Shown here: in pieces, positions 10,960-64,000 of the stretch
How positions within the stretch are numbered: the stretch's first letter is position 1
Layout: every line of letters begins with the position of its first letter
Origin: Raillietiella orientalis
Lineage: Eukaryota
Reading direction: 5' to 3'
Length of the DNA stretch: 64,000 bases
NCBI GenBank assembly: GCA_036172245.1
Contig: JAYWIR010000024.1
Coordinates: 1,736,001 to 1,800,000 of the forward strand
Position numbers and translations under genes: made by a program
Notes under the pieces: generated by a model
Seen by the model: only the letters and a program-made list of their open reading frames with translations
Told to the model about the DNA's origin: nothing
Databases searched by the model: none

Positions 10960-11550
10960 GAGTGCCCGGAGAAATTCAAGAAGGGCTCCGCAGGAAGGAT
11001 TCCATTCCTCTTGCGATTGGGAGGGAACCCCGAAGGGAAACCTCTTCCTTACGCTCTCCAGAGGGGTGCCCCAGAGGGGGTCACTTCTCGTTTCTTCTCC
11101 GAAGGGAACCTGAAAAGGGTCCGCTCCTGGTTTCCTTCTCTGCAGAGACCCTGGAGGATGCTTCCCAATTTTCTCTGAAAGATCGCTCCCTGAAGGAAGC
11201 AGAGCGCTTTCTTGGCACTCTGGAGAGGCGACTCCCTTGGAGGGTATCAACCAGCTCCTTGGTGCTCGATGATACCTGAAGGCTCCATCTCCACAACCGG
11301 AAGGGGAGCCCTGAAGGAAACCGACCGGCTCCTTATTTCCTCGGAGGGGGTCCACTTCCAATTCCGGTCCGTCAGCGGGAGGCATCCGGCTTCCCCTACA
11401 TACCAACCAGCTCCATCCTGCGAAGGAAACTCGAAATCCACGACGCACCCCCCATTTCTTGGTGTCGATCCTTCCCGAGCGGGATTCGAATCCTCGATGC
11501 TCGGTGCTACGAGCGGAGACCACAGCTACGCGGCCGCCAGCGCGGATCCT
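10960..11550 (-). mobile_element. tRNA-derived SINE-like repeat, copy 2
   Basis: Minus strand reads GGCGGCCGCGTAGCTGTGGTC...GGATTCGAATCCCG, followed by the shared body. Confidence 0.75.
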
Positions 11551-12169
11551 AGGCTCGGGGTACGAGCCAGGCGGCCCCACCCGGCCCACTCAACCGAAGC
11601 GGGGAGACGCGCGTTCGCTTGCGGGAACACGCAGAACGCGGACGCGAACCCTTCGCTCGGACGGGGGACGGCTGCGCGAGCGAGAGGTGAAACGCGGAGC
11701 TGCCCCCTGCCGCCTCCAGGACCCGTCGACCTCTCCCGACCATCTGCCCGACAATCCTCTCCCATACAGGGATGGACCCGCTGCCCCGAGATGCGCCACT
11801 CACCTGCTGGCCGGAGGACAGAAAGTCATCGGAGCGCCTTGGGGCCTGGTCTTCTCCCGGTGCGGGTTGTGACCCTTGCATCGCACTGCCCCTTTTCTCA
11901 CTTTCGGACTTGTGCGAGGCTGGCGGCGTCCTCACTCCGTTCGCAGGCCCACCGGGCGAAGAGCAGGGAGAGGGGCACCCCGAGCAGGGGCAGAGGGAGG
12001 GGGTACCGCAAGGGCCGAGGACTTCCGAGGCTTTTCGGGCCGCAGGGCGTCGAGGCTTGCTGAAGGAGGCCGAGTTCCATTCCGCACGACCCCCAGTCGC
12101 GTTCGCTCTTGCTCCTAGGCCGGGAAGGAAGGGTTGCAGCCCGTGGGGATGACGGTCAGAGAGTTCGCT

Positions 12170-22489: not shown

Positions 22490-23050
22490 CGGTATGGGGA
22501 GGATCACGATTCAACGCTCTCTACGCCACCCAAGGAGGCGTGTGGAATCTCCAAGCTACAGCGAATACCTCGGGAAGGGACTACTACCCTACCCTACCTT
22601 CTTCCAGGAATGCTCCGGAGGAAGGAGTTCATTCCTCTTGTACTTGAAAGGAACCCTGAAGGAAATCCTCACCCTGCTTGTTTTCGTAGGAGTCCCCTGG
22701 AGGGGGCCACCCCTTGTTCTCCGGAACCGTTCTTCTTACGGGAACCCTGAAGGGACGCTTCCCAGTTTCCCTGAAGGGCACTTCCGGAAGGAAGCAGAGC
22801 GATTCTTGAGACTGGGGAGGCATCAACTAGCTCCATGGAACGCGATGGAAGGTCTCCCCCTTCTCCTTTCCAAGGTGAGGGGACGGCTCCACTTTCACAA
22901 CTGGAGGGGAATTCCGAAAGGCTCCTTGATTCCTGGAAGGACCTCGGAGGGTCAACTTCCAATCCCGTCCAGTCAACGTGGTCATCCAAAGGTTTCCTGT
23001 TTCCACCAGTGCCGCACCTGAATGGGCCAACCGCGCGGTCCATTTTGGGA
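22490..23050 (-). mobile_element. SINE-like repeat body, copy 3 (head missing)
   Basis: Clear similarity to 8225-8590 and 59310-59673; contains an unoccupied CCAGTGCCGCACC site at 23006-23018. Confidence 0.7.
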
Positions 23051-24560
23051 TTGGCCGCGCGTATGTCCCGGCACACCTGCCGTCCCAGCATATGCGGACG
23101 ATCTTCTGCTGCTGCTCCCAGCGTCCACCTTGGCATGCGCACTGCACGGCTTCTTCGAGTTGCTCAGTCGTGGGACAGGTGAAGTCATTCATCGTTACAG
23201 CCTGGTCCGGCCGTCTTCAGAAAGCACTGTAGGCGCTCGGCCCGTTCCAAGAGGTAGGTTTTACCTGACGGAACGGACCGCGGTGTGGAACACGTTTGCA
23301 GCCCCTCTCCCCCGCTTTTTGCTTTTTGTTTGCCCCTCACCATGCAGCATTAGAAAGCGGACAAAGGACCTCCTCTGGATCGCCCTCTGAGCAAAGGGAG
23401 GCCCCGAGGCCACCTGAAGGACTTGTGTGCTCCGCGCCAGGACGGCTGCCTGGAATTCCTCCTGATGCTGGAGCGAATGAAGCTGCAGCTTCAGTTTCGG
23501 GCACTCGCCCTCGTGGAAAAATTACGGTGCATCACCTGGTGCCAACCTGCACGTCTTCTCGTCCAGCAAGACACCGGTAGAGTGGGATGCTAGTCCCACT
23601 CTACCGGTGGCCTTCCATGCCTTCTCAGCCTTCCATGCAGCCTCATCCATGGTGGACTGCATCTGCGACAGGTGGCCACGCTGGCGAAAAAAAACGGATG
23701 GATTTCGTGTCGCCCCGCGAAAGGAAGTGCCTAACTGCAAAAAACCGTTCGCACGTGGACGGGGAGTCAAGAGCGGAACAGGTGCGACGTTTCCTATACG
23801 CGCGCAACAACAACTGCACTCTCCGGGAGATCCTGGAAGATCCCGTGAAGAGTGAGTGGGCAAGCAGAAACTCCCTCGCTACTGCGCTGCCCTCCCTTAG
23901 GCAGCACATGGGCAGCAACCTCGCGGAAAAATAGGAGAGATTACTGCGGAAATCTTCGAAGAAGAGGACTGGGCGAGTGGACGACGGGCCGGCTTACTGA
24001 TACTGAGACCCCGAATGCTCGGACTTTTGCGCTGAGGCGTGGTACTGGGTATTCTGGAGGAAGACCTGCAGTAGACTCCGGTGCCCATGAACACCCGCAC
24101 CCTCCCTTCAAAGTGGCACGAGTCGGCATTGATGCCGCTGCACTGGGGCCTCCCGTGCAACTCCCTCCGGCACCTGTGGACACGGGGGAGGAGGTGGATC
24201 CAAACTGCAAGGTGCGGGAAAATAGAATCCCTTCTGCACCCCCTAGTGGACTCTGTTGCCCTACAACCCCTTCGAGGACGCTTTTCCGCCACCCTTTGAA
24301 CCCCCGGCGGAAATGCCAGAGACATTTAGAAGTGCCTCTTTCTGAGCGACGTCCTCACGCCGGCCGCATCCCCAGCAGCACTATCCTGTCCACCGGAGGG
24401 ACCATGGCCGTATGGAGCAACGCCAGAGGAGACCGGAACGACAGAGACGCCATCCATTTTGCTGTACTCTTCATGAGGATAACGTCAAAATGGTCTCATC
24501 TGGGAGTCATGAAACAGGAACTTGTGGCATCCTTACAAGGATTCAGAGACGCTCTCCAGC
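23050..24560 (+). mobile_element. LINE ORF2 fragment from the RT YADD motif to the C-terminus (subfamily A)
   Basis: PAVPAYADDLLLLLP, ERTAVWNTFAAP, KWHESALMPLHWGLPCN, ITSKWSHLGVMKQEL; frameshifted. Confidence 0.85.
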
Positions 24561-24564
24561 CTTT

Positions 24565-24683
24565 CATTTCGGTCTTCGCGCGTGGCACAAAATGTCGCGG
24601 GTTCCAATTCCACCCGGGAAAGAATCGACGCCGAGAAATGGGTATGCCGTGGGTTTCAAGTCCCCCTCCCCTTCAAGGTGACC
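24565..24683 (+). mobile_element. SINE-like repeat head fragment, copy 4
   Basis: GGGTTCCAATTCCACCCGGGAAAGAATCGACGCCGAGAAATGGG matches the B-box region of the other copies. Confidence 0.65.
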
Positions 24684-24714
24684 AGTCCCGGCTGTCTTTG
24701 ACAGCCGGGACTCA

Positions 24715-27700
24715 ACACTCGGCGCTCCTTCTACCAGCTGGCTCCGTGGCTGGACGCTCAAAGGACCGTCGAGCCACGCCGACAGGGACGACGGAGCTCT
24801 TCGAGCAGCGTTGCTCGCGACCGCCGTCGCCGCGAGTGACGCTGTCACGCGGCGGCGATCCATTCGATCCGAACGCAGACCAAACGTAGAGCAAATCCAG
24901 GCTTCCTCCCCCGCTGCCGAAACCACATGTTTTGCGGATGGGCGGCGAACCCACCGTCGTCCCAGTCCGTCGTCGTTCAAGCAGCGGGCGCCCCTCGGAG
25001 ACAACGCGGATGGCGCCAGTCGCACGGCAGCTCTCTCGGTGGCACAAACCGAGCACCTCGACGAACTTTCAGGATCCCCTTCCTCCTCCTCCACTACCAC
25101 CACCTCTTCCTCGCGAGAGCCAGCTGACGTCTGGGCGGTTCAAGGACAGCGGCCGCTCCTGCGCGTTTGCCACCGCGTGCTCCCAACCAAGTCCGGGCCG
25201 CTTCCGGTCGCCTCTCGTCCGTCCCAGCGAGAACTTTGTCGTAAAAGATAACGAAATTTTATGCGGGCATTAGCAAAATTAGCCTCCAGGACAACAGTCG
25301 ACCCTCTGACAAGTTCATTTGCATAATGATCCTCGGCCATTAAAAGGGAAGGTTGAAGATTTCGGAAAAGCAAAACTCTGCATGCTCGCTCGGGGAGACG
25401 CCACCTTGAATCAGGGTCAGGCAATGGCCAGGCAGCACGGATTCCTCCTCTGAAAAACGCCGCATAAGTGCAGCCCTAAATAGGAATGGGACGGAGGTCT
25501 TCCTCTCGCGAAAAGGTACCAACAAATGGATGGAGGGCATCGGACGTGCCAGGAGGCAAGCCTCCGCACCGCCACTGGCAGCGCCAAGCCAAGAGCATGG
25601 CTTGAGGAGAAACGCACGCCATCCGCAACGCCAGCGGTGCGGATGGAGTCGCCGCAAGAGCAACAGCACCGCGGTAACTCTCACGGTACACATCCGGCGC
25701 CGCCTTCCCGCACGTCCCGCCACCGACCTTTCGCCCCCGGCAAGCCGCTCCTTGCCTCCACACCCTTCTCGCTGGAGACGCCCACCGAAAGGCGCTCCTG
25801 AGCTCTTGGGCGCAGGTCTGACCTGGGCCCGGGATGGCGGTGTTGGCGCTGGACGATAGCAGCATACCATCCCGCGAGGCTTCTGGAGCGGGGAAACCCA
25901 CTGGCCTTGCCTTTGTGACCGCGGTCCGCTCGCCGGCGCACGAAGTACGTACTTCCTTTCTTCCTTCCTTCCGCGCTGGTGGACGCGGAAGAGCACCTCC
26001 CGCGCCTTCGGCGCGAGAGGGACAGAAGATCGGCGTCACTCCGGCCACCAGAGGGCGAGAATGCATTCCTGGACCCCTGTAAGCGCCCCCGGCTTGACCG
26101 AATCGGTGCTTGAGGCATCTGGAACTTCCCGCTTCCTAGCAGAAAGATGGGATGAAAGTTTGGAAGTCCGGTGGCCCGCCATCAATCCAAGCGGATGAGG
26201 AATGCGAGCGGAGCAATGGAACTCACGTATCGAGGCACACCCCACCAGGAAGAGGATTGGATCAGAAAGAACTCCACGCGGGTCTGGCGGCTGGGAGCGG
26301 CTGCCTTCAGGAAAGGCGGCTCCCGCTACGGTACTGTAGAGGGAGGCAGTGAGCTCCCGGACGATGAGCTCAGAAGACCGGAGGTCAACTTGAGCACTCC
26401 GCCGCCCCCCTGGTGCAAAGGGCCTTCCCGGGCCGCCTTCGTTCAGGAACGTCCGCTCTCGCGAAATCCCCCAGGAACGGGGGGAAAGCGGTAGAGCACT
26501 TCTTGAGTAGCCTTTCCGGCGCGAGAGGGCACATCTTCCCAGTCGATTTGCAAGGAATGTTCAGTCTTATCACTTCCTTTCCTTTTCGTCCCCCTATTCC
26601 CTTCCACATCCTCCTCTTCTTCACTTACTTCCGTCCATTTCCCTTTCTCCTTCTTCCTCCTCCTCTTCCTTCCTCCACTTCTCTCCCCTTCCTCGCTGAG
26701 AAAACTGTGGAACGAACGGTCAACCTCGATCAAGTACACGATGGCTCGCATCGGCACCCCCCCTGGCCAACAGAATCGCAGCCACCCGGTCCGCCCTCAT
26801 CTCGCGTCCCACATCCTCCCACATCTGGCTCTGCCCCCATGCACGCAGCCGCCATGTATGCCTCACAGGGAATCACCTTAGCCAGAGAGTGCGCCGCACG
26901 GAATTGCCTTCTCCTTCCATCCCTTCCGCACTCATGGGCACCGCATGCGTCGCATCCTTCATCGTGTCCCCACGCCTCCGATGCTGAGGAGGGAATGCGA
27001 GCGGACGGAAAAGAGAATTTTTCCAGCGTTGTCGCCGGTCTCTTCCATCCTTTCTCAGACTCCAGAAAGCCCCATGCATCATCCTACCTGCCATCCCTTC
27101 CCCCCCTCACCGAGGACACGCCCCTTCCGCGTTCGGTTGGCAGGAGTGTCCCGCAGCTCTTCTCCCTCGCCTCTCCTGGGAGCTCCTGCCGACCGCAGCG
27201 CTCGCCCGGATCGGGAAGAAGAAGAAAAAAGAAAGAAAGAAAGAAAAACAGAAGGGAAGAACCCCAGCCCGCTTCCGGGTTTTCGTGGGCACAATCGGAG
27301 GGCGCGCCCTCTTCCGAGGGTCCGGCCAGAGGGAAAGAGGGACCGCAGGATCCCGCGCTCAAGAAGAGGCTCTTCCGGGAGAGCGCCCCCGAACCGGTTC
27401 CGAGCGGCTCCTCCCCTTCGGGACCAGCAGGCGTCGGCATCGGCGTCCCCGAGGGTGGTTTGAGGCCTCGACCTTGGGAGCCAAGCGTCACGGCCCATCT
27501 TGGGCGGGACCAGCATTGCCAGGCATCTCCGAGGTAGCATCGTGGCCAATGGGGAAAGCCGCAGTTGCTCGGGGCCCCGGTTGCGTGGCAACCAGCTTCC
27601 GCTCGATTCCGTCGGTGCAGCTTTGACCGGATGGACTGCTCATCGCGAGACCACGCAGACTGACGGCGCGACCCCGTCTCCTAGGAGACCACCGGTGAAG

Positions 27701-37835: not shown

Positions 37836-39406
37836 CTGCAAAATTAGCCCAAAAAACGTAACCATGTTACGAAAAACTGTAACATGGTTACGCACTGTTA
37901 AGAGCATCAATTTTCTTAGAAAGGTGAAGAGCGGTGCGTGTTGCTCCGTTGATGAGTCTTTCGCTGCTGCGCTAGATACTTCTGCAGTTCCTCCAGAGAA
38001 GCTCCGAAACCAACAGTGTGGTGCCTTTCTGTTCTTTCAATGGACCTCTCTCTTGTTCCTCATGTACTCAGGATAGAGCTCGACGGTCTAGAAATGTTTC
38101 GAATCACCTCTTTTCTGACCTGTTAGTTTCGTTTTTCTGTCTATGGTTACGGTAAGCTAACATGTATTCTTCGATCCCTAGAGGAGAATTTTTGCGTTTG
38201 TCTATCCCTACGTACTTGACTTGAAATTTTATCGCTAAGCTGGAAATGGGGGGGGGGGGACCGTCAGTATTTGCAACGTGAAATGCCCCTTTCTTTCCTT
38301 CCCAGACATAGCGTTAGCTGTCTCACTTTCACTTTCCTTTTGAAGAGTCCACACTTCTTCATCTTACATGTGGGTCAGAACTCTTATCTTCTTGCCGGCT
38401 TTCCCCATCGACTTGGTTCCAGGCATAAGAAGGGGAAAAAAAATTATGTGGGAAGTGCCTTTAGAAGCCATTCCCTAAACAAATAATCCGGAACCGAACT
38501 TTTTAACTTGATACCGAGAATGACAATTTTTATTGAATCCAAACTTTCCTAACTGATAATGCTGAAAATGCACAATTGAGAATAATCATTTTGACCTATA
38601 CTTTAAGTGACATTGTAAATGTGCGAGATGTGCAAGTTTTAAGTGGGTGTGCACTGCCGCATTTATCTGGTGGTGACGTTTTAGAGTGTGGTAATAAAAA
38701 TGTCTCAAATATTTCTTATATCAAGTGATGCAATGTATAGTGTACAGAAATAAAATTCCTTGAAATAAAACTCTTTGAACTATGTATTTGAGGACTTCAG
38801 AAATTGGTCTGCATGAAAGCTTTACGCAATTCTGTTAGTACAGTACTTATAATAGGTGGTTTCACGGATTTCTTTACTTGGCTTGCTTTACCTGATTTGA
38901 TGAGAAAATATGCAAATCTCATCAAGCCCTTCGTGAAACCACTTTATTATTTCTCATATTCATATTCATTATTTGTCTACTCCGATCGTTGAAACAGCAG
39001 ATAGGTGGATCTTTCATTAGTGAAGCATGCGAAGCTTTAAATTACAGTGTTTTACCAAGGACAAGACATGAGCTTTATGAATGAGAATGAAAACTAAGAC
39101 AAAAACAACTTGAAAAATAAGAGATGGATGGCATTCCTCTAATGAACTGCAGAATTCTATGGTGGATCATTATTTCTAATGATATGCATGCATGCTCTTG
39201 CACGATCACTACACATTATCCATTGCTTAATAACAGAAAAAAATATAGTGAAAGCGAGGAGTACTGTACGTGATGAAGTAAACGAAGGATTTGCGATAAT
39301 TATATGTAAATGAAAAGTATAATAATGCTTATAGTAACCTGAATTTATAAACTAGACTTTGCCTTTTGTTTTGTGAATATATATTCTCTCTCTCTCATGT
39401 ATATGT

Positions 39407-39761
39407 AGTTTATACATACATACATGCATACATACATACATGCATACATGCATACATACATACATACATACATACATACATACATACATGCATACATACA
39501 TACATACATACATACATACATACATACATACATACATACATACATACATACATACATACATACATACATGCATACATACATACATACATACATGCATACA
39601 TACATGCATACATGCATACATACATACATGCATACATACATGCATACATGTATGTATGTATGTATGTATGTATGTATGTATGTATGCATGTATGCATGTA
39701 TGTATGTATGTATAAACTGTTAAGCTGTTATATATATATATATATATATAACAGCGTCTCC

Positions 39762-48700: not shown

Positions 48701-48953
48701 GCGCCGGTCAACATCGGCAACTAGCGGCCGATTACTGTTGTAAATACAGACGCCAACGTTGCTGGTTGCCACCCGGTCACTCCAGGGCGTTTGTTATAAA
48801 GTCACTAATATTAGTGGTACGAGGCCCCACTACGGCCAACACAACAGGACCTGCAGCCGACCCCCCGCCATTGTTCGGACGTGCATTTTGGCGCTCCGGC
48901 TTTGGAGTTTTTGCGGTTGTTCTTTTTTGAGTTGGTGTGATTTCCATTTGGAA

Positions 48954-49975: not shown

Positions 49976-50759
49976 TCCCCGTTCGTTACCGCTCCGGAGC
50001 GAAATGGCGGTGGCCTGCGTGGGAAGACCACAGGAGCGCATAAAAAGCGATCGCGCGCCCTTCTGCTCGCGAAAGGCAACCCGTCCACGGCGAGCCCATC
50101 CGCGGGAAAGGCTGCAAAGCCTCGCGTGATTCCCCAGAATCCCGCCACTATGCCCGCACCTTCAGGTAAGGAGGTGCAAAAGGCAAGTGTGGCGAGGGAG
50201 CAACTGGCCGCGATCGCCCCTCAGGAGGCCCTCGAAAGGATACAAAGGACCCTGCAGGCTCTCGCAACCAGCCCAGGCAACCGAGAGGACAGCGAAGCAG
50301 GCTGGACTTTTGGGAGGGGAGGAAGAAGGAGAGGAAGCCCAGAGATCCTTCCCACTTCCTGATCATTAAGGTAGGTGGGGTGAAGAGGCAGCCCCGTGCT
50401 CCAAAGAAGGTGCACGAAAAAGCCTCCGCTACCGTTGTGCGAGCAGTCGCTGTCGCCCGCGGCGAGAAGGAAGCTGCCGACGCCGCTACCTCGAGAGGGG
50501 GATCGGCGCCAGCGGCACCCTCTATGAATGCTGGACCAGCTTCAAACTGCCAGCAAAAGAGCGGCAGGCAAAACGCCTGCCGCGCGCGTGAAATTCGGAC
50601 TACGAGATGGAGGCCGAGGGCAGCGCAAAGGCTCGCCAAGCCCCGGCTAAACCCAGGGCTGTGCGCAAGCCGAAACTTTCCAGGCGAGAGCCTGATGCCG
50701 GGAACGGTTCCCGATGCTCCTCGGAACCCGAGGCAATGGTCCTCGACTCCACTGACCCA

Positions 50760-53245
50760 GCCGTGTGCGACGCGGCGGAGACCGGGTGCGGTTCCACTCC
50801 CCAATCCGCATCTTCTTATTTTCCGGTCGAGGCACAGAAGAAAAGACGCGAGTCCTTCAGTCCCGGACACACGTCTGGCGAGGAGGCGGGCCGGAACGCA
50901 CCAAGGGGTGCTCCACATCTTCGCCGCGATGGCTAGGGTACGCCACCGCAGCTGTATTTCCACGCGCTCCAGAGTCAGGAGGCTGAGACCGCCGTCCCGA
51001 CGTGGAGCGCACAAGTCCATCAGAGGCACTCGGGACCTCCCTTTGCCCCAAAGGGCGATGCGCAGGAGGTCCTTCGTTCTCTTTTTCATCTCACTGGGTA
51101 CGGGGCAAACAAAAAGCAGGGGGCGAAGGATGGGGGCCGCGAACGCGTTCCACACCGCGGCCCGTTCCGGCAAGTGAAACTTGCCTTCCAGGAACGGGCC
51201 GATCGCTGACTCCACTTTCTGTAGACGACCTGACCAGGCTTCTGACTGGCAGAAGTCCCCCAACGGAACCCCACGGAGAGGTACTAAGTACCTCTCCGTG
51301 GGGATCCCCAGGCGGATCCAATCAGGTCATCCTGCCCACGTTGCACCAACCGCAACCAGCGACGACTTCGTCCTGTTCACCCGTAGTCCTGTCCCTCGGC
51401 TCAGCAAGTCGAAGAAATCCTCGACTGTCGAAGCCGGGGCGGACATGGGCAGCAGGAGCAAAAGATCGTCAGCATACGCCGACACGGCCGGAGTACCGGG
51501 GCACGAGCTTGGCAGGGCAGCCAATGTCACGCTGTATGCTCTCAGCACCAGTTCGAAATAGGTGCTAAAGAGCAGGGGACTCAGGCTGTCTCCCTGCCGG
51601 ATGCCGTGCCTTACCGGCACGCCGAACACGTTTTGTCCTCTGAAAAAAACGGTGATTATCGCATTGCGCCAGCAGGCGCGCAGGTAGGCCGTTAAGGCGT
51701 CCGGGAAGCCCATGCGATCCAGGAGCTCCAGAAGGAGTTCCTAGTCCACGCAATCGAACGCTTTATGCAGATCGACTGCGATCGCTAGAACCCCCTTCCC
51801 TCCCCGGTCGTCTCTTACTTGCCGCGCTGGAGCCCCCAAATCAGGGTTGCCGACATTTCGTCTTTCCTTCTTTTCTTCGCGTCGCACGGAACCATGTGCT
51901 GGCGAAGAACAGGTTTGCTTCCATGCTTCGCCCGGGAACAGCGTACGCCTGTTCCGGGCTGACGAAGCTGTCCGCTACCTGTCCCAGCCGCGCAGCCCAC
52001 AGTCCAGCCAACAACTTGGCGTCCGTATTCACAATCGTGATCGGACGCCAGTTGCTTAATTTCCTGAGGTCTCCTCCCTTCGGAAGGAGCCTCACCCTGG
52101 ATGACCGAAACGAGGTGGGAAGATCGCCTTCGTCTCGGATCAACCTTGTCAACTCGACCACCGGGGGGGTTAGCTCTGCAGCGAAGCACTGCAAGAACTC
52201 CGCCGGCAGGCCATCCTCCCCTGGCGCCTTACGCCTCTTGAGCCTTTTAATCGCGGTGATGATTTCACCGGTCGTAAAAGGCTCGTCGAGGCTTTCTTTC
52301 TCCTCCTCCCTTATGGCCAGGGCTCCATCTGGGAGCAAGCGCCGCGAGGCGTCCCACTCCGCAGGTGTCCTGGCGTACAGGGGGGAGTGAAATTCCCGCA
52401 CGAGGCGACGTATCGATGCCGGGTCCGAGTGCTCGTGGTCCAAGTCGTCCAGCACGCTGGGCGGCCCGGTTTGCCAGGCTTGACGCTCGGCTCCGGCTTT
52501 GTACTCGGCCAAGCGACGGACGTCAGAGGTCCTCGCGTAACGACGGGCGTGCAAATACGCTCTTTATTTGCGGCCTCCCTCACCAAATCCCCGGGGCAGG
52601 CGGTGCAGAGGGAACTCCTCGCAGAACTCGCGGACCCCGAGACCTTCATGCGGTCCCAGTCGTCGAGATTCCGGAGGATGACACCTCCCAGGAATTGGCG
52701 GAGATGTTCCGCCGCACCGGAGATGCGCGTCCAGTCCCCGGGCAGACGCCACGCCCTGGATGGTGGTCCTTTATCACGAGGCATAACCTCGAAAATGAGC
52801 CGGAAATGGACGACGGAAGTTTCCCTCGTCTGCCGACCCGTGGGAACAGGTCGGCGTCAAGGAAGACGTGGTCGATGCTTTGGACCATTTCCGGTAGGTC
52901 CCCCAACAAGTTGCGCGTGAGCATAGCAGCGCACTTGCGTCTTTTTGCCCGCAAGGCACACCGGAGAGCAGGTGGATGTTGAAATCCCCACCGATCAGAT
53001 GTGCCTTGCGTACGTTTGTATCAGCCAGCCAGTCGCGCTTCAGGGTTTCGAGGAACCGGGAACGTTCTCCTTACCCTCATCCGCCGCTCGGAGCGTACAC
53101 GTTCGTCACGACAAGGTGGATCCAGTCGGACCACCTAAGGATGAGCTGGCCAACCCGACTGTCGTTGTCGAAGCGTACGCCCTTGACGACGGCGTCGACT
53201 GCTGGCTTCATAAAAAACGCGACGCCACAGGTGTTGCGAGCGCCT
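50760..53245 (-). pseudogene. LINE ORF2 (APE endonuclease + reverse transcriptase), subfamily A, frameshifted, both ends missing
   Basis: CGVAF, NVYAP, IGGDFN (APE); KAPGEDG, NWRPITIVNTDAK, VDLHKAFD, GIRQGDSLSPLLF, AYADD, VNRTKS (RT). Confidence 0.92.
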
Positions 53246-53404: not shown

Positions 53405-55609
53405 GTTGCTTCGGTGAAGGCGTGGCCAACAGCAGAGCGTTTCTGCAGGCCTGCCGATTCTCCCGTTGCCTGGACGTCCGGTATCTTGCGGAGTACAAAT
53501 CCGAGCGCCAGTTCTGGCAGTCTGGAGTGGCTTGTCTGCTTGACGACCAGGACCTGGAATGTTCGGCGCGTCTTAAAGCGCTATTACTCCTCGTTTTCTG
53601 CAAGGGAGACGACGGAACGCAGTCTCTCCGAGCTGCTTCTGCCGGCGGATGCCCCTGCTGTCGACGAGGAGGAACGAATGACCTTGGATCTGCCCTTCAC
53701 GGCTGAAGAAGTGGCTTCTGCCATAGCGGGCCTGAAGAGGCGAGAGGCGCCAGGTGAGGATGGCCTGCCTGCGGAGTTCTTCCAGTGCTTCGTGGCGGAA
53801 CTCATCCCCCTGGTGCTGAGCCTTTCTACGCTGATGCGAGAGACGGGCAATGTTCCGGCCTCGTTTCGCACAGCAAGGGTGCGTCTCCTGCCGAAAGGCG
53901 GAGACATGCACCAATTAGACAACTGGCGTCCGATCAACTTGGTGAATTCGGGAGTCAAGTTGTTTTCCAGGCTCTGGGTCGCGCGCCTAGGTAGGATCGC
54001 GGGATCCGTGGTAAGTCCGGAGCGCTTCTACGCTGTTCCCTGACGGTCCATGGAGGCGAACCTGTTCTTCTCGCGCACGTGGCTCGAGCTGCAGCGATGC
54101 GTGGCGCACGACAGCCAGAGATCAGCAGCTACGGCTGCCTCGGCTAGGCGTAGGCGCATTCGGCCTGAGGAAACGCCGAGTGCCTTGGCGGTCGCGATCG
54201 ATCTCCACAAGGCGTTCGATTGCGTGAATCAGGATCTCCTTCTGGAGCTCCTGGAACGCCTCGGTCTCTCGTGGTCTATTTGCGCGCATTCTGGCGCTTC
54301 GCGCTCATCTCGATCTGTTTCAGCGGTTGCCATGTCTACGGCGTGCCGGTGCGGCGGGGCATCAGGCAGGGCAACAGTTTAAGCCCGTTGCTCTTCAGCA
54401 TCTTCATTGAGTTGGTGCTGAGGGCGTTGGTCCAACCTGCCGAGCTCTTGTCCCTGTACGCCGTCCGTGGCGACCTATGCCGATGACCTGCTTCTCCTTT
54501 TACCCATGACCACCCCGGAGTTCAGTCTCGAGGATTTCCTAGAGCTGATTCGCCGGGAAGGGACATGAGCGTAAATCGGAGCAAGAGTGTGGTCGTTCCT
54601 GTTGGTGCGGCGTGGGAGGGGCAGTCCGACTGGATCCGCCTAAGGATTCAGACCGCTACGTCTTTGAAGTGCTTAGGCGTCCCGCTGGGGGACATCAGTC
54701 CAGTGGAAGCGTGGTCGGACTGCCTTCGGAAGGCTGCCGGTGTTCTGAGCCCGTTCCACCTTGGCAAGTTCCTCCTGCCAGAGCGGACCTCCGTTTGGAA
54801 CACCTTCGTTGCCCCCTCTTACGCCCCTGTTTTTTGTTTGTCCGCCCCCCTACTCGGCCAAGCTCCAGGCACGAAGCCTGTTGAGAAACGCTCTGTGGGG
54901 ACCCGCGAGGTCCAGGATCGGCCTCAAAGACTTGGCGGATCCGCGTCGGGATGCTGGCTTGGGCATCCTGACGCTGGACATAATCGAGCTGCAGGTGCAG
55001 TTACGAATGTTGGTCCTGTGCGCCAACCTCTGGTCCACTCCGTGGTGTGTTCCCGCGCGCCTGCTACTGTGGCGCTGAACGGGCAGCGAAGGATTTCTCT
55101 CACTGCTGCCGCATACGGAGAGCGCCACGAGAAGCTTCGGTTTCCTTCTGAAACCCTTCTATCGGCTCCTAGTAGCCCACACATGGATCTCCTGCCACCC
55201 AACGAAATTTAACACCTGGCGGCAGAACCGTTGGATGCCTGGTCAAGGCAACAGGATGTTTCCCTTTTGGGACTCCGTTGCGTCAACTTCTCTCCATACT
55301 GTACGATGGAGGAGGTCAGGAACAACCAGGAGAAGTGGACTCGCCTGGCCGTCACGCCTCTCGCAGACGCGCTGTCAGCCCTCAGGGCAAGTGATGATAG
55401 TTGCCTACCGGCGAGGTGGCAGGTCGCCTGCAGGTCTCCTGCACCATCGCAGGAGCAACCCGACCCATAGGCGGCTGGAGGACTTGCGAGCTGGCAGACG
55501 CCGCCACGCCTCGCAACATCTCGAAGGGACTCCTTCGATGGAGCGAACATTTGAGTGTGCCCCCCGAAGAACTTGTGGTCCCTCCCTCCTGGTTGAACAC
55601 TTCTGTGTT
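53405..55609 (+). pseudogene. LINE ORF2 RT domain (subfamily B), frameshifted; C-terminus resumes at 56587-57022
   Basis: EAPGEDG, NWRPINLVN, IDLHKAFD, GIRQGNSLSPLLF, TYADD (ACCTATGCCGATGAC at ~54473), VNRSKS, KCLG. Confidence 0.92.
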
Positions 55610-56575: not shown

Positions 56576-58831
56576 ACTTCTGTGTTCCCCCTTTCTTGGA
56601 CGTCATCATGCTGGTGCATTGGGGTTTTCACTCCAACCAGTGGATGAACCGTGTTTCAGGGGGAGTTGTCTCCCCGAACTGCAAAAGGTACGGAGAAGTG
56701 GAAACGCTCCGGCACCTGCTCTTGGACTGCTGTGTCCTCCAAGGACTGGCGGAGGCTGGCCTCTGCCCTCCTGCTCCAGGGGGACACCGCAAGGGATTTG
56801 ATGCGCCGCTTCTTCCCGCCAGGCAGCCTATCGTTAGGTGCGGGGGTCGCAACGGTCTGTTGCACTCGCGCCATGGACAAGTCCCACCGACAGCTAGAGT
56901 ACCAGGCGATTGGTCGAGAGGCCACCGGAATAGCCGAAGACCACATCACGTCGGCTGCCGAGTGGGCCCATCTTCCGGAAGACGTGAGGAGCGAGATCTC
57001 CTGCATCCTCCGCCAGTTCTGAAGGAAAGGAACGGCCAAATCCAAAGACCCCTGTTCCCTACCCTCCTCATATCTTTATTTATGTTTTTTATATGAGCAC
57101 TTGTGGTTCCCTCCCTCCCGTTCCGGACTTTCGGTTTACCGACCTGCGTGTCGGGGATCCCTCCATTCGTTTTTCTGTGTCCCTTGTCCGGGGATTCTGT
57201 TCCCGGATAGTTTAGAAATAAACGCCCCGGCGCACCCGGGTGGGAAAGAACAGGACCTGCCAGGTCGTCGGTATGCAAACCGGAGCTACTCTCCACGGCA
57301 GCGGAAGGGGATGGGGGAAAAAACAAAAAGAAAATAAAGACTTTAGTGGGCCGGGAAGAGATCATACACCACTGGGAGGAGGGTCCATCCTTTGCAGGAT
57401 GCCGTCTAGATCCATCCGAATTCTGCCCCGCTGGGGCCATCTGGTCGCAATCCGCAGGTAGCGGACAGCGAGTTCGACGGCATCCTTCTCATTGCTTGGC
57501 GTTCTGACTTCACTCCAGCCAGTCACCATCCCTCGAACGCAGCAAAGTGCTCCTAGGGCTGCGGCTGGTTGCAGGGCATCCCGCACAAAGAGAAGCCGAA
57601 AAACGTCATGGGATGGTTGCCCATCGGCATCAGCAGGGAAGTACCCAGACGTTCCCAGATGGGGCGGAGGGCAACACAGTCAACAGTCAGGTGGAGGAGG
57701 GACTCCCGTTCTCCGCACCTGGCACACTCAGGAATCACTCGTCCCCTAGTCCGGTGGTGACGGCGTGCATTTCAGGGAAGACCCCAGCGCAACAGCAGAT
57801 GAGCCGACTCTTGCCACTTCACGGGGAGGAGGCTGATATCCTTGAACACTGGAGAGCAGTCCAGATCTTCTCTAGGAATGCCGGGTAGCTCGTCACAGCG
57901 CAGTATTCCTCGTGGCGGGACATTCGGGTTAGCAGCATCTGCCAGCTGTCCCGTGGTCCAACCACTCATTCCTTTCCTCCTGCCTGCGATATCTCAGGAG
58001 ATTTCCCACCTTGGCTGTTGACTGCTGCCATTGCCTTCTTCAGGGAGGGCATTGCACCAAGGGGGATTTTCTCCTCTCACTCGCTCATGCTGGGATTCTC
58101 CAGGATCTTCCGTAGTGGGCAGAGGACGTGGCTGTTGAGTCGCAGGCAGCTCCACGTCTCCGAGCTGAGCGCGTCTCACTTGGTCCACAGGCCAACAGCT
58201 TCCTCTATCCAGGCGCTGGAGTTGACGGGTCAGCAGGCCATGCAACCGTTCTCCTTCACCAAGGTGGACATGTGCCCGAGATGGCGACTGCATCTTCTGA
58301 CCTTCCGACCGGACCACAAAAGGTATGTTGCAAGCCCCTCCTTGCGTAACACACGTTGACTGGAGAAGAGACGAGCAGGAATGCACCAGGGGGCTCTCTC
58401 GTACTTCGCTGGGATGGCCATCGTTCTCCGACGCAGCTGGATGTCCATGCGCTCCAGAGCTAGGAGGCCGCGGACGCGGTCCGGACGCGGAGCGCAAGGT
58501 TCGTCAACCGGACTCAGGACTTCCCGTCGTCCCACAAGGCGATTTGCAGGCGGTCTTTCGCCCGCTTCTTCGCTTCTCGGGGGGAGGGGAGGGGACAAAC
58601 AAAAAGCAGGGGGTGGAGGAGAGGAGCCACGAAGGGTTCCATGCCGTGGCCCCCGTTCCAGCATGTAGAACTTGCCCTCCAGGAACGGGCTGAGTGCCGA
58701 CTCTACTTTCACGGAACGATCGGGCCGAGCTTCCACAGAGGGGGAATTCCTCCAACGGCGCGCCAAGGTACTTCAAGTGTCCGTGGGAATCTCCAAGCGG
58801 ATCCGGTGCGACCGTTCGGCCCACTCTTCAC

Positions 58832-59291
58832 TTTAAACCCGGTTCGCCGGGACGTTTATTTTGTCAACAAACTTATCTATATTGTGACTAAACCAGTAGT
58901 CCAGCCACGTCCTAGAAAGTAGCAGCTTGCCGGGCTACCGGTGCGCAGACCGGCGCGGTCGACCTCGGCAGCAGAGGGGAAAGGGAAGGAAACAAAAAGA
59001 AAACAAAAAAAAATAAACAAACTGGGGAGGGATCGGGAAGGGATCACTATCTTCTGGGAGGGTCCGTCATCCTCTGGAGGATGCCGGCAAGCTGTTGTTG
59101 AATGGTGGATGTCAGATGGGGCCATCGCGTTGCCATCCGCAGGAAGCGGGCGGCATACACGGTGGCATCCCTGTCGCTAGTTCCTCCCGTCGCTTTGCTC
59201 CATGCCACGACGATCCCTCGTAGGCAGCACAGGGCTGCAAGCGAGGCCTCTGGAGGCAGGGCGTCTCGGACGAAGAGGGGGCGCAAAGCGT
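58832..59291 (-). mobile_element. Nested short subfamily A LINE 3' end
   Basis: FLRMATRWPHL; terminus at 58836-58860; 8-bp TSD CTCTTCAC at 58824-58831 and 59292-59299, with host sequence continuing after it. Confidence 0.8.
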
Positions 59292-59686
59292 CTCTTCACC
59301 AACCGCTACTTTTTTTCTTTTTCTTAAAGGAACTTCTTCCTTATTCTCTCCGGAGGGACCCTTGGAGGGAAAGCTGCTCATTTCTTCTCCGAAAGGGACC
59401 CGGAAATGATCCTATCCTGGAATTTCTTTCCTGGAGAGAACTCCGAAGGTAACAGCGCTTCTTACAGTCTGGAGATGCAACCCCCAGAGTGGGGTGCCAG
59501 CCACAGCTCTGTAGTACGTGATGACGACTCCACTTTCACGAGCACAGGAGAACCCCTTAGGGTTCCTTGATTCCTGGGTTCCTTGATTCAAGGAACTCCG
59601 GAGGACCCCGCTATCCTCCGGAGAGTCCCAATCCTGGCGGTAAGTCAAGAGAGGCATCCGGCTTTCGGCTTCCCCAGTGCCGCTCC

Positions 59687-60002
59687 TCTTCATGAGGATA
59701 GGGTTAAGATGGCCCCATCTAGGGATCCTAAAACATCTTTACAAGGATGCAGAGGACGCCTTCCAGCACACAATGATCCCTTCCCGAAACCCCCCATATT
59801 TCTGACTGTATGTTTTATTTTTTGTCTTTTTTGTTTGTCTCCCCTTTCCCATGAGCTGCCGAAGCGAACCCCGCTATCCTGCGTGCGAGCTCCCGTCAGG
59901 TTCCTTCTCGTATTCATCAGTAATGCGGCAGGATCAAACGTTCCTGCCATAGACGTGTATGTTTATTTTGTAAATAAATGCCACGGCGTGAAGGGGGGTC
60001 TA
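59687..60002 (+). mobile_element. Short LINE 3' end inserted in the SINE
   Basis: Begins LFMRIGLRWPHL; TGATCCCTT 3' UTR; AATAAATGCCACGGCGTG terminus; flanked by CCAGTGCCG(C/A)TCC. Confidence 0.8.
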
Positions 60003-60015
60003 CCAGTGCCGATCC

Positions 60016-60695
60016 TGAGTGGCAGAAGTCTGCACTGATGCTGTTGTACTGGGCCTCCCGTGCAACGCCTGCTGGCATCATTGGATACGGATGTGTGTAA
60101 ACCCAAACTATGTCAGGTGGTGCGGGGAGCGGGAATCCCTCCCGCACCTCCAAGTGGACTGTGTTGCCCTCTGACCCTTTTAAAGAAGCTTTGCCGCGAA
60201 TCCTGGAACCCCCGGTGGCAACGCCAGAGAGATGATACAGCTTCTCTTTGTGCGGGACGCCCTGCAGCCAGTCGCAGCTCTGGCAGCACTTTGCTGTCCT
60301 CGTGGGATCTCTGCGACGTGGAAAGACGCCAACCGAGGAGCCAACGACAGGGACTCCATCCAATTCGTTCTTCGCTTTTTACGGATAGCGATCAGATGGC
60401 TCCACCTGCACATCTCCATGAAACAAGACCTTGCCGAGATCCTCCAAAGGATACAGAGGACCTCCCTCAACAGGTTGTGATCCCTTTCCGTAACCACCCG
60501 AAATTGTTTTATTTTCGTCTTTTTTATTATTTTTTTTTGTCCCCCCTGCTGCCTTGGTGGACCTCACTGGTCTCCGAACCGGTAACATGGCAGTATATCT
60601 ACAGAAAGGACGTGGTTGGACCAACGGTCCAACCACAAAAATGGGAAACGTTAATTTTATTTTGAATAAACGCTCCGGCTAACCCGGGTGGAAAA
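60016..60695 (+). mobile_element. Subfamily A LINE 3' fragment inserted in the SINE
   Basis: EWQKSALMLLYW...FLRIAIRWLHL; terminus AATAAACGCTCCGGCTAACCCGGGTG at 60665-60690; flanked by CCAGTGCCG(A/C)TCC. Confidence 0.85.
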
Positions 60696-61277
60696 CCAGT
60701 GCCGCTCCCGGATGGACCGACGAGTGTCATCTTGCGGGGGCACTCGAAACCCAGGATGCACCCCGTTCTCGGCGTCGATGCTTACCCGGGCAGGATTCGA
60801 ACCCGCTACTCTCGGTGACACGCGTGTAGACCGCAGCCACACGGCCGCCAACGTGGGCTCCCTCTCAAGAGGTGCTGCTGGTCTTGCATTGAGAAATCCC
60901 ATGCGAAGCGCAACTTCATCCACCATTCGGACCGGGGCGAGTGTGGGTGCGGAAGGCGGCAGGCGTGGTGTGAGGGAGACCCTCCCGCGCCTGCCCTCCG
61001 CCCCCTTTGAGGTCGCCTGGCTACGACTCTGTGAATCCCGGTGGGCGACACCTGGGACATTTTGAAACGCTTTGCGCATGCCGCACTGCCGCCAGCCGTA
61101 TCCCCCTCGCAGTCCTCTGCTGTCTTCGCGGTTTCATGGAGGCCTGGAACGCGAGAAGAAGGGCCAGAATGGAAGGGACGCCATCCACTGTTCGGAAATC
61201 TCGTAGACAACCATGAAATGTTCCCACCTGAGCGACATCCGGAACAAACTTGCGAGCATCCTGGACGGAATGCAGAG

Positions 61278-62288
61278 TTGTCATCCGGGTACTGCGAGGC
61301 GCGTATTTAGTATAAAAATAAGCGTCCGCAATTTTTGTAGTAAGACTGGTGGTCCAACCAAGTCCGTTTCATAGGGAACTTTCCGGGTAGCCAGTACGCA
61401 GACCAATGGAATTCGTCTCGGCAGCAGAGGGGAGGGGGCAAACAAAAAGAAGAAAAAATAAATAATTTGGAGCGAAGGGGGGGTGGGGTGCGGGAAGGGA
61501 TCATTTTCTGCTGGGGGCTGTCCTCTGCATCCTTTCGAGGATGCCGACAAGCTCTTGCTGGATGATGTTTCCCAGGTGGGACCATCTCATTGCCGTCCTC
61601 ATGAAATCGGACGGCGAAGTGGATGTTGCACTCCTGTCCTCCTCTTGCATTACTCAAGGACGTTCTCGCGTAGCTGGCAGAGAGCTGCTAGGGATGCTGC
61701 CGCCGGCGGCAGTACGTCGCTAACGAAGAGGGATTTCAGTGCGTCCCTGCTGCGTCAGCCTCTGGTGGTTTCCAGGGTCGCGGAAAAGTGTTCCTGGAGG
61801 GGCCAGAGAGCAACACTGCAATCCACAAGCAGGTGCGGTAGGATTTCGTGTTTCCAGCATCTGCCACAGTTCGGGTCTACACGCCCCCATGTCCAGTGAT
61901 GCCTGCGGTCGTTGTACGGGTGACCCAAGTACCGTAGTATCAACGCAGACTCCTGCCACGCCAATAGGAGGGTGTCCAGGAGCACTGGGGCCGCTTCAGA
62001 TCTTCCTCCCGAATATTCAGCAGTAGCCCGCGCCAGCGCAAAAGTTCTAGGGGTGCTTCACTAGGGGTTGCAGCGTCTGCAAGCTGACTCGTCGTCCCAG
62101 TCCTTCTCTCCTGCCGAAGATCTCTATGGATCCTCCCAACTTGCCGGAATGCCGCTGTCCATGTGTTCCCTCAGGAAGGGCAGAGCTGCAGCAAGGGAGG
62201 TTCTTCCTGCCTACGCACCCTTCAATAGATGTTCCAGGATCTCGCAGAGCAAGCAGCTCCTGTAAGGTCCATACAGGAATCTCTGGGC
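61278..62288 (-). mobile_element. Nested subfamily A LINE 3' fragment
   Basis: CGRCWKHEILPHLLVDC; TSD ACGG(A/G)ATGCAGAG at 61265-61277 and 62289-62301. Confidence 0.8.
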
Positions 62289-62431
62289 ACGGGATGCAGA
62301 GGGCGCCTCGCAGTGTGCAGTGATCCCTTCCTCAATTCTCTCCTCCTCCCCTCCCCTCTTCCCGAGAAAAAAATTTCCCACTCTTTTTGTTTCCTTTATT
62401 TTTATTTTCTGTTTCCCTTCCCCTTCTCTGC

Positions 62432-63061
62432 TTACCACCCGGTTGCACGGGAACGTTTATTCCAAAAAACGAACAAACCATTTGGGAACTCGGTTCCCAG
62501 AGAATGGAAAAGAAGTTCGATGGGGAAGGCGGCCCGACGCGCAGGTCAGGCACATTGAAAGTCCTCAACGTGAGAGAGGCAACCACAAATAGATATAAAA
62601 AATATGAAAAAAGATATGGAGCGAGTAGAGGACAGGGGTCTTTGGCTTTGGCCGTTCCATCGTTTCAGAGCTGGAGCTGAATACCCGGCTACCTCCTTCC
62701 TTGTTTCTTCCTTGAGGTGAGGCCACCTAGCAGCCGTCCTCGTGTTGGCACCTGCAATGCGGGTGACCTCCCTTCGTTCTGCTTGCGTCTCCAACACGTT
62801 TCGGGCCATGGCGATGGCGTAGATGCATCTAATCGTTGCGATATCCACGCCTAGCGAGAGGCTGCCACGCGTGAAGAACCACCGCATCACGTCGACGGCG
62901 GTGCCCTCCAGGTGCAGGAGCACTGAAGTCACCGCCCTTGGAGGGCACCGCAGCTCAGTAGAAGGTGCGGGAGCGATTCCACCGCTCCGTGCCTTCTACA
63001 GTTCGATGAGGCAACTCCCCCGGAAACCATGTGCGTGAGCCGATTGCAATGGGGACCCCTC
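62432..63061 (-). mobile_element. Nested subfamily B LINE 3' fragment
   Basis: TRTAARWPHLKEETRKEVAG; TSD TCCCCTTC(T/G)CTGC at 62419-62431 and 63062-63074. Confidence 0.8.
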
Positions 63062-64000
63062 TCCCCTTCGCTGCCGAAGTGGACCTCGACGGTCTGCGTG
63101 CCGGCACTTGGAAGGTTCAGTGGGTCTTTTCTTTTTAGCACGTGGCAGGACCACGTGTTCTGCCACAAAAAACGTGGTTTTATTATTATTACTTTTCATG
63201 GTGAATGCCCCAGCGAAACCAGGTGAAAACCCAGTATCACTGAGATGCCACCGGTTGGGTTCGTGGGAGGCCGTTGCGAAACCCATCCAGCGGCTAAAAA
63301 TGCCTGATCCCACCGAGCGGGAATTCTAGAGGTTTTGTAAACCAACGGCCTCCGAAGTTCACGGGTTTCTCATGGCTGCCAAGAAACTTCCCAAGCATGG
63401 ACGTCGTAAACAGTCTGAAGCAGTGGAACTCCGGATGTTTCGTCCGCCCCCCCGTTTCCATCTTGGCGCATGTGGCGTTGATAAAGCATCGCACTGTTCA
63501 TAGAAGATTGTGTAGAGAGGCGAACTCCTTATCTTCTTATTAAAATATTTTGATGTTTAAATTGTGGTTGCCGTAGGTGCAGCGGCAACTCGTTTGAGTA
63601 TTCCACTGCAAGTCACAGGCTTTTCCAACGTTCTCTTTTCACTGTAGCGGTAATGAGATGTTTGTAGGTGCGGCGCTCTCCTTCCAAACGTGTCGAACAC
63701 GTGCAAAAGTGGCTTCGTAACACAAATGTCACGTGGCCAACAATCCATTCTATTTGTGTGCTATGGAATCCCAAGATGAAGAGACGTCACGTATGTTGTA
63801 CGTGTTCTGTGCTATAGTGGGCATCAACACCTCGTGCTATGTTAAACTATTAGGTGTGTATTGTATTATTTTTATCTATTCTTTCATTCAATGTAATAAT
63901 AGTAATAGCCAATTCCCAAATATTAGAATGATGAGATTTTAGGGGGGGGGGGAGGGAAAATCGCGGATTTTCGAAGGCGGGATTCCATCGACTCCTGTTG

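Follow-up and report, generated by a model that had tools for sequence, protein, structure and literature searches.

Long interspersed nuclear elements (LINEs) that favor particular sites within other transposons have been described from crocodilian genomes. According to the accessible part of Kojima 2015 (Genome Biol Evol, PMC4494074), crocodilian Tx1 families prefer defined positions of Mariner-N4_AMi, Harbinger and long terminal repeat (LTR) elements, which they enter in a fixed orientation. A 16-bp target-site duplication (TSD) is given there for SINEU-3, tandem copies "sandwiching a TSD" are taken as sequential insertions, and, as a working criterion, target specificity is assigned to families that have a single kind of sequence at more than 20% of their flanks. 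In the portions of the published work available, the LINE targets found comprise rRNA, snRNA and tRNA genes, microsatellites, DNA transposons and LTR elements. The present analysis concerns a stretch of 64,000 nucleotides from Raillietiella orientalis (assembly GCA_036172245.1, contig JAYWIR010000024.1, positions 1,736,001 to 1,800,000 of the forward strand), referred to below as the window and numbered from its first letter. The evidence from this window supports the repeated use of one position of a short interspersed nuclear element (SINE) by independent copies of a LINE family, in the same orientation and in two SINE copies.

The locus resembles Tx1-Mar and the other crocodilian Tx1 families, together with their SINEU passengers, in that the LINEs, which have an apurinic/apyrimidinic (AP) endonuclease in the crocodilian families and may have one here, show a non-absolute preference for sites inside other transposons and a fixed orientation, to judge from the accessible text of PMC4494074. 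The same text offers further parallels in the defined TSD (16 bp there and 13 bp here) and in the tandems that sandwich it. The targets differ: those named in that part of the paper are Mariner, Harbinger and LTR elements, whereas the present LINE enters a SINE that has a tRNA-type promoter. The basis differs as well, since the crocodilian families described there were placed in a reverse transcriptase (RT) tree and their preference was drawn from hundreds of copies, while the present case comprises one window and no tree placement.

In SINE copy A, which is interrupted by two LINE fragments, the 13-mer CCAGTGCCGCTCC stands before the first fragment, between the two (with one mismatch) and after the second, at the positions that had been given by the original prediction and that are borne out by sequence matching (Table 1). 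The three copies are identical at 38 of 39 positions, the sole difference lying in the middle copy. Allowing at most one mismatch, the 13-mer has four matches in the window, compared with 0.11 expected, and none of 100 dinucleotide-preserving shuffles of the window gave four. Two further matches with two mismatches each, at 7302 and 21462, lie outside any LINE or SINE context and look like chance. The possibility that the 13-mer is LINE-internal was rejected, as it is absent at the homologous position from four of four other LINE copies. All four carry unrelated sequence upstream of the point that corresponds to the start of insert 2, and the middle 13-mer is therefore target sequence rather than LINE.

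The two inserts were correctly recognized from the sequence as different, differently truncated LINE 3' fragments in one orientation, both lying on the plus strand. A common conserved terminus of the LINE family is present at both of their 3' ends, and the mean column identity across their shared 3' part is 63%. Such a level of identity, set against a single differing position among the 39 of the 13-mers, indicates that the LINE fragments were already divergent on arrival. Near-identical shared 3' ends, which the original prediction had named as the sign of a local tandem duplication, were looked for; at 63% identity between the inserts versus 38 of 39 in the 13-mers, duplication of one insert is contradicted. 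The larger insert includes a degenerate C-terminal Cys/His region of the second open reading frame (ORF2) as well as the 3' untranslated region (UTR), and is 65-69% identical to six other LINE copies by blastn.

The sequences on either side of the inserts belong to one and the same SINE. A profile was built from the uninterrupted copies B (11000-11580) and C (8081-8620) and run with nhmmer against the 64-kb window. The left flank of copy A ends at profile position 433 (59673) and the right flank resumes at 444 (60715), such that excision of the inserts with two of the 13-mers restores one collinear SINE. The expectation that removal of both inserts would give a single SINE is thus upheld, the profile of uninterrupted copies bridging both flanks.

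A further equivalent site, at 23006-23018 in SINE copy D, had been described as unoccupied. It is in fact occupied, with LINE RT sequence present by 23052 and plausibly by 23020-23032. The SINE body of copy D stops at profile position 433, as does the left half of copy A, and is followed by CCAGTGCCGCACC. LINE identity is certain from 23052, where the translation reads PRVCPGTPAV.AYADDLLLLLP, LINE RT sequence on the plus strand. Residues 315-588 of P0003, a protein of 619 amino acids that is 77% identical to the window copy of the LINE, match 23055-23773 (tblastn), and 24112-24548 matches insert 2 at 68%. Upstream of 23052 a weak collinear match (RAVHFGIGR versus RAFRVTLGR; 34 of 500 shuffles were equally good) suggests that the LINE starts by 23020-23032. 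The final ~240 bp of the element are missing, along with its 3' junction. It is followed at 24569 by a SINE-head fragment in the opposite orientation, termed E, and past 24731 the sequence defies assignment. Copy D probably holds a third LINE that inserted independently, oriented as the other two and at most 33 nt from the same SINE nucleotide. Its independence is indicated by copy D being no closer to copy A than other SINE pairs are to one another, and by the different truncation (mid-RT). A segmental duplication embracing copies A and D was rejected in view of their 62.5% identity and the different LINE truncation points. Fragment E (24569-24731) was also considered as an empty or occupied site, and was excluded from the counts because it loses its similarity to the SINE some 10 nt from the site, after which the sequence cannot be assigned. 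All three LINEs are antisense to the SINE, and their truncation points differ (316 bp, 680 bp and mid-RT, respectively).

Table 1. Positions in the window of the SINE copies, the LINE copies and the target 13-mers.
Feature	Coordinates	Strand	Evidence or remark
SINE copy A, left half (body and A-rich 3' tail)	59311-59673	-	nhmmer 59327-59673 = profile 45-433, E 1.1e-30
Target 13-mer, copy 1, CCAGTGCCGCTCC, exact	59674-59686		sequence match
LINE insert 1, 316-bp 5'-truncated 3' fragment, 3' UTR group 1	59687-60002	+	3'-terminus profile E 5.4e-23; blastn to other LINE copies
Target 13-mer, copy 2, CCAGTGCCGATCC, single C-to-A difference	60003-60015		sequence match; not LINE-internal
LINE insert 2, 680-bp 5'-truncated 3' fragment, 3' UTR group 1	60016-60695	+	3'-terminus profile E 1.4e-23
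Target 13-mer, copy 3, CCAGTGCCGCTCC, exact	60696-60708		sequence match
SINE copy A, right half (head with B box and A-box-like motif)	60709-60860	-	nhmmer 60715-60857 = profile 444-596, E 3.8e-21
SINE copy B, uninterrupted, site degenerate CCAGCTCC	11000-11580	-	nhmmer profile/alignment
SINE copy C, uninterrupted, site degenerate CCCACAGGCCACC	8081-8620	+	nhmmer profile/alignment
SINE copy D, body, independent old copy	22628-23005	-	nhmmer profile 2-433, E 7.2e-50
Target 13-mer in SINE copy D, CCAGTGCCGCACC	23006-23018		12/13 identity; occupied site
Third LINE (probable independent insertion), 5'-truncated in mid-RT	23019-24560	+	tblastn with P0003, blastp to LINE copy X, translation, blastn
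3' end of LINE KT, followed by CCAG in non-SINE DNA	63057-63230	+	5' part 62260-62431, split by nested LINE
LINE 3' fragment X3, short, followed by CCAG (48765-48762) in non-SINE DNA	48766-48860	-	terminus profile

The distribution of LINE 3' termini was analyzed with a profile of the conserved 3' end, which gave 13 matches in the window at E < 0.01. Twelve of these reach the terminus and constitute the counted set; the thirteenth (6493-6423) falls short of the 3' end and was dropped. The tetranucleotide CCAG directly follows 4 of the 12 termini, namely the two in SINE copy A and those at 63230 (+) and 48766 (-), the latter two as had been pointed out before. Given a background of 0.0048 per position, the probability of 4 out of 12 is 2.6e-7; with the SINE site taken as a single case and a slack of 1 nt permitted, it becomes 4.6e-4. 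All four CCAG termini are members of 3' UTR group 1 (7 termini), and none of the four group-2 termini is followed by CCAG. The flanks of the termini at 63230 and 48766 show no significant similarity to the SINE, which also disposes of them as hidden SINE copies. Similarly, CCAG was rejected as a part of the LINE's own end, being absent from 8 of the 12 termini. The LINE thus inserts widely, with a marked CCAG bias and a hotspot in the SINE; the preference is real, though partial.

The consensus LINE end, AATAAACGCCCCGGCGTGACCGGGTGAAAA, forms a short conserved stem-loop without poly(A). The 12 LINE copies carry 3' UTRs of two deeply diverged groups, which are ~45% identical to one another and share only the last ~30 nt (e.g., 60606-60695). 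This shared end comprises a CCCGG-CGTGA-CCGGG stem-loop plus GTGAAAA, and the group 1 3' UTR has an additional upstream hairpin of ~9-11 bp. RNAalifold, applied to seven sequences, revealed changes on both sides at 2 of 9 predicted pairs. The conservation of a 3' end lacking poly(A) suggests that the RT may recognize the RNA 3' end. When the 3'-terminus motif was searched for in metagenome contigs, one locus (L001) came up, which was discarded as a chance match in coding-looking DNA without LINE context.

The host element was examined further with respect to its copies and promoter. Its sense strand in copy A is the minus strand. The head of copy A carries the B box GGTTCGAATCC (reverse complement 60793-60803), close variants of which occur in B, C and E, and an A-box-like motif resembling TAGCTGCGG lies ~40 nt upstream of it. 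The element is roughly 550-600 bp long, with the insertion site ~97 nt downstream of the B box, and copies A and C bear A-rich 3' tails. In the window it occurs as short, scattered copies (A, B, C and D, plus head fragment E) that share their 5' end and have pairwise identities of 61-68% (62.5% for D versus the left half of A). By these features the element behaves as a SINE with an RNA polymerase III type-2 promoter, the putative A and B boxes being at tRNA-like spacing. The description of the SINE as tRNA-derived can be retained in part: the B box and A-box-like motif are present, but ARAGORN at default settings detected no tRNA in the window, and Rfam gave none at the gathering threshold, nor at E values up to 10 on three SINE heads. 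Weak, over-long tRNA calls were obtained in three of four SINE heads with relaxed ARAGORN settings only. A tRNA is a plausible though unproven ancestor of the element. Both uninterrupted copies, B and C, carry degenerate versions of the site, which is anecdotal with four informative copies.

The SINE body (59311-59673, 11000-11400 and 22628-23005) consists of degenerate units of ~30-40 bp that follow the pattern CTTCC...TTCTCCGGAGGGAACCC.GAAGG, and is therefore partly self-similar on both strands, with weak reverse-strand profile matches at 11034-11166 and 10095-10231. Head fragment E includes a hairpin with a perfect 12-bp stem (24685-24711), GTCCCGGCTGTC TTT GACAGCCGGGAC, within an apparent insertion of ~32 nt.

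In terms of LINE classification, the RT domain RVT_1 was detected in 3 of the 67 window ORFs scanned (best E 2.2e-9). Among the best 150 of 40,601 RT relatives, retrieved from a library of 1.84 billion representatives, P0003 is accompanied by a second close relative, a fragment of 132 amino acids that is 70% identical to it; every other protein is at most 38% identical, and the identity to any full-length relative is ~24-38%. The lineage, represented by P0003 and by 50751-52455 (-) of the window, is thus almost absent from public protein sets, among the matches listed. A search of genome contigs for loci related to P0003 gave one 26%-identical fragment on a contig of 1801 bp (L002), and none was found in viral contigs. 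The best full-length relatives show the domain order AP endonuclease, RT and zf-RVT. Those of the relatives that have names are labelled only generically or automatically. In precomputed Pfam annotations of the 10 best relatives, PF03372 is present in all 10 and PF13966 in 7; upon rescanning, PF03372 was detected in 9 of 11 relatives and PF13966 (zf-RVT) in 8 of 11. The best match of P0003 in the Protein Data Bank (PDB) is human LINE-1 ORF2p (E ~1e-39), with R2 proteins listed at ~1e-17 to 1e-11. By its RT, the LINE belongs to the L1 superfamily. The original prediction went further and proposed a candidate Tx1 family. Repeated use of the SINE site now has a stronger foundation than was first noted, with two and probably three insertions, but the Tx1 label has not been established, and membership of that clade is a guess.

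Taken together, these data argue for an L1-superfamily LINE family with a partial but real target-site preference and a strong site in the SINE, a reading to which a probability of roughly 0.65 is assigned. The proposed mechanism is as follows. The priming nick would be placed in the SINE sense strand (the bottom strand) after ...CACTGG, where the duplicated segment begins on its left side and the top strand reads TTCC/CCAG. Reverse transcription would be primed at this nick from the LINE 3' stem-loop. A second nick 13 nt to the right, in the top strand after ...GCTCC (CTCC/CGGA), would then account for the 13-bp duplication of CCAGTGCCGCTCC. Such a duplication would leave two full 13-mers, each with one original flank, either of which could be cut again. 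A second LINE, from another subfamily, would have entered one of them, giving the order 13-mer, LINE, 13-mer, LINE, 13-mer, and in another SINE copy a third LINE would have entered at this site or no more than 33 nt away. It is reasonable to infer that the TSD regenerates the site and may so allow tandem arrays, in line with the Tx1/SINEU pattern in the accessible text of PMC4494074. Likewise, we infer the nicking chemistry, the AP-type endonuclease as the source of specificity and the succession of the two insertions, in either order.

Several observations weigh against this interpretation. Eight of the 12 termini have unrelated flanks, and unrelated TSDs occur at other inserts, one of 8 bp (GTGAAGAG) at the LINE 58832-59291 and one of ~17 bp (62415-62431 / 63057-63074) at the group-2 LINE 62432-63056, much as the original prediction had allowed in calling any preference non-absolute. 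Termini at the SINE site amount to 2 of 12 (17%), or 2 of the 7 in group 1 (29%), borderline values in so small a sample when compared with the rule of more than 20% in the available part of PMC4494074. The sample consists of one 64-kb window with four informative SINE copies; the interval 55-64 kb is a dense LINE nest, and the arrangement is known from the assembly sequence alone. No remnant of an endonuclease was detected in the window by tblastn with nine full-length relatives, which matched nothing N-terminal to residue ~358. In copy D, the 33 nt that follow the 13-mer can be assigned to neither LINE nor SINE by DNA similarity, and the LINE 3' junction is lost, so that the same nick may, but need not, have been used in that copy.

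A more far-reaching version of the same idea can be offered tentatively, and is on balance doubtful. The LINE might belong to an L1-superfamily lineage that has diverged deeply, perhaps to the point of lying outside the Tx1 clade of animals, and that has evolved sequence-directed homing into the SINE. The SINE would then be a multicopy safe haven, regenerated by each 13-bp duplication, inside which LINE arrays could grow. The sequence CCAGYRNC, with which all three preferred contexts start, would constitute the core of recognition, and the similarity of the nicks CTGG/GGAA (bottom strand) and CTCC/CGGA (top strand) might reflect one specificity acting on both strands.

Among the explanations that compete with site preference, or with part of it, the one that survives best concerns the tandem itself, which could have arisen in a single event, either by unequal crossing-over or gene conversion between occupied SINEs, or by an RT template switch onto the read-through transcript of a LINE occupying the same SINE site elsewhere, which brought a 13-mer with it. 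There are enough SINE copies for ectopic exchange to occur, and it is only the middle 13-mer that differs, which might fit an origin at a different locus. Every version of this scheme, however, needs LINEs at the same SINE nucleotide in at least two loci; the site preference therefore stays, and only the origin of the tandem changes. Moreover, no flanking evidence of exchange was found, and copy D shows independent occupancy. A single event is thus considered an unlikely origin.

Position-specific targeting offers a different account, in which the RNA polymerase III complex bound to the A/B-box promoter would tether the LINE and direct its insertion to a set distance downstream. The TRE elements of Dictyostelium integrate near tRNA genes by such tethering, and the location of the site, ~97 nt past the B box at a fixed position and orientation in both occupied copies, would be compatible with it. 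This account is nevertheless improbable, more so than a single-event tandem. The two insertions share a 13-bp TSD to the nucleotide, CCAG also follows two termini in DNA without SINE similarity, and copies B and C have B boxes and yet are unoccupied, with degenerate 13-mers; in addition, the window has no tRNA genes for comparison.

Least probable is coincidence in an insertion-dense region without any preference, or an assembly artefact joining repeats, which could draw on the nested and abutting array of at least nine LINE fragments in 55-64 kb and on the assembly as the sole source of the arrangement, but against which stand the ~0.003 coincident pairs that we calculate as expected for 12 termini (66 pairs) in 10 kb and two orientations, the copy D junction 37 kb away in a different SINE copy, a CCAG excess that is independent of the tandem, and the fact that assemblers do not join contigs on 13-nt overlaps. 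A U6/L1-type chimera, in which antisense SINE RNA is joined to the LINE, was rejected as well, since it leaves the collinear SINE head after the third 13-mer unexplained.

Other arrangements of LINE copies were observed in the window. The group-2 LINE 62432-63056 (-) is nested inside the 3' UTR of the group-1 LINE 62260-63230 (+). A second same-strand abutment of two LINEs involves the group-2 LINE Z (56579-57246), which starts at most 29 nt past the 3' terminus of LINE Y (56578). Since Z has a copy of AGAAC at either end, it may have inserted into Y's own tail. LINEs X (-) and Y (+) form a head-to-head pair with tails outward, marked by a 354-nt inverted repeat of 72% identity (51889-52242 / 53732-54085), and both are truncated ~180 codons upstream of the RT. 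In a second such pair, R (-) and KT (+), also with tails outward, the 5' ends lie within ~30 nt of each other (~62262-62292). These head-to-head pairs could possibly represent two RNAs primed from two nicks of one target. Apart from the LINEs and SINEs, a self-complementary tandem array of ~380 bp with an 8-bp period (direct family D1, with many inverted pairs) was found at 39348-39730.

With regard to other known systems, Tx1L of Xenopus laevis (in the Tx1D transposon), Keno (in U2 snRNA genes) and Kibi and Koshi (in microsatellites) are similar to the present LINE in being site-directed elements with a multicopy target, whose specificity is attributed to the endonuclease in the available text of PMC4494074. 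In that text they are described as target-specific, whereas for the present LINE the SINE site accounts for only 2 of 12 termini (17%), and CCAG is all that the preferred sites have in common. The rDNA LINEs R1 and R2 provide another parallel, in that variable 5' truncations abut one constant target, as far as the accessible parts of PMC1919474 and PMC4640811 describe them. They differ in belonging to another clade, in the restriction-like endonuclease of R2, in having a host gene as target and in their near-absolute specificity, again according to those parts (PMC1919474, PMC4640811). The closest solved RT relative is human LINE-1 ORF2p (PDB 8uw3, 8sxt and 8c8j). LINE-1 shares the order of AP endonuclease, RT and C-terminal zinc-binding region with the full-length relatives of the window LINE, whose 3' end, unlike that of human LINE-1, has no poly(A) but a conserved stem-loop. 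The nicking preference of L1 is a loose one, for TTTT/AA.

LINEs with a preference for sites on transposons, and tandems that sandwich a TSD, have already been published, as the accessible text of PMC4494074 makes clear; what is new here is the SINE as target. A literature search that did not extend to subscription journals, Repbase Reports or the supplements of PMC4494074 found no LINE homing into a SINE. For now, the locus is best seen as a clear example, on a local scale, of a phenomenon already known. LINEs with preferred targets illustrate the way in which a selfish element can spare its host, and the endonucleases of such LINEs are candidate tools for directed integration. If the preference proves to be genome-wide, it would add the homing of one retroelement into another, and would supply a short, testable recognition sequence, TTCC/CCAGTGCCGCTCC/CGGA, for an uncharacterized LINE lineage.

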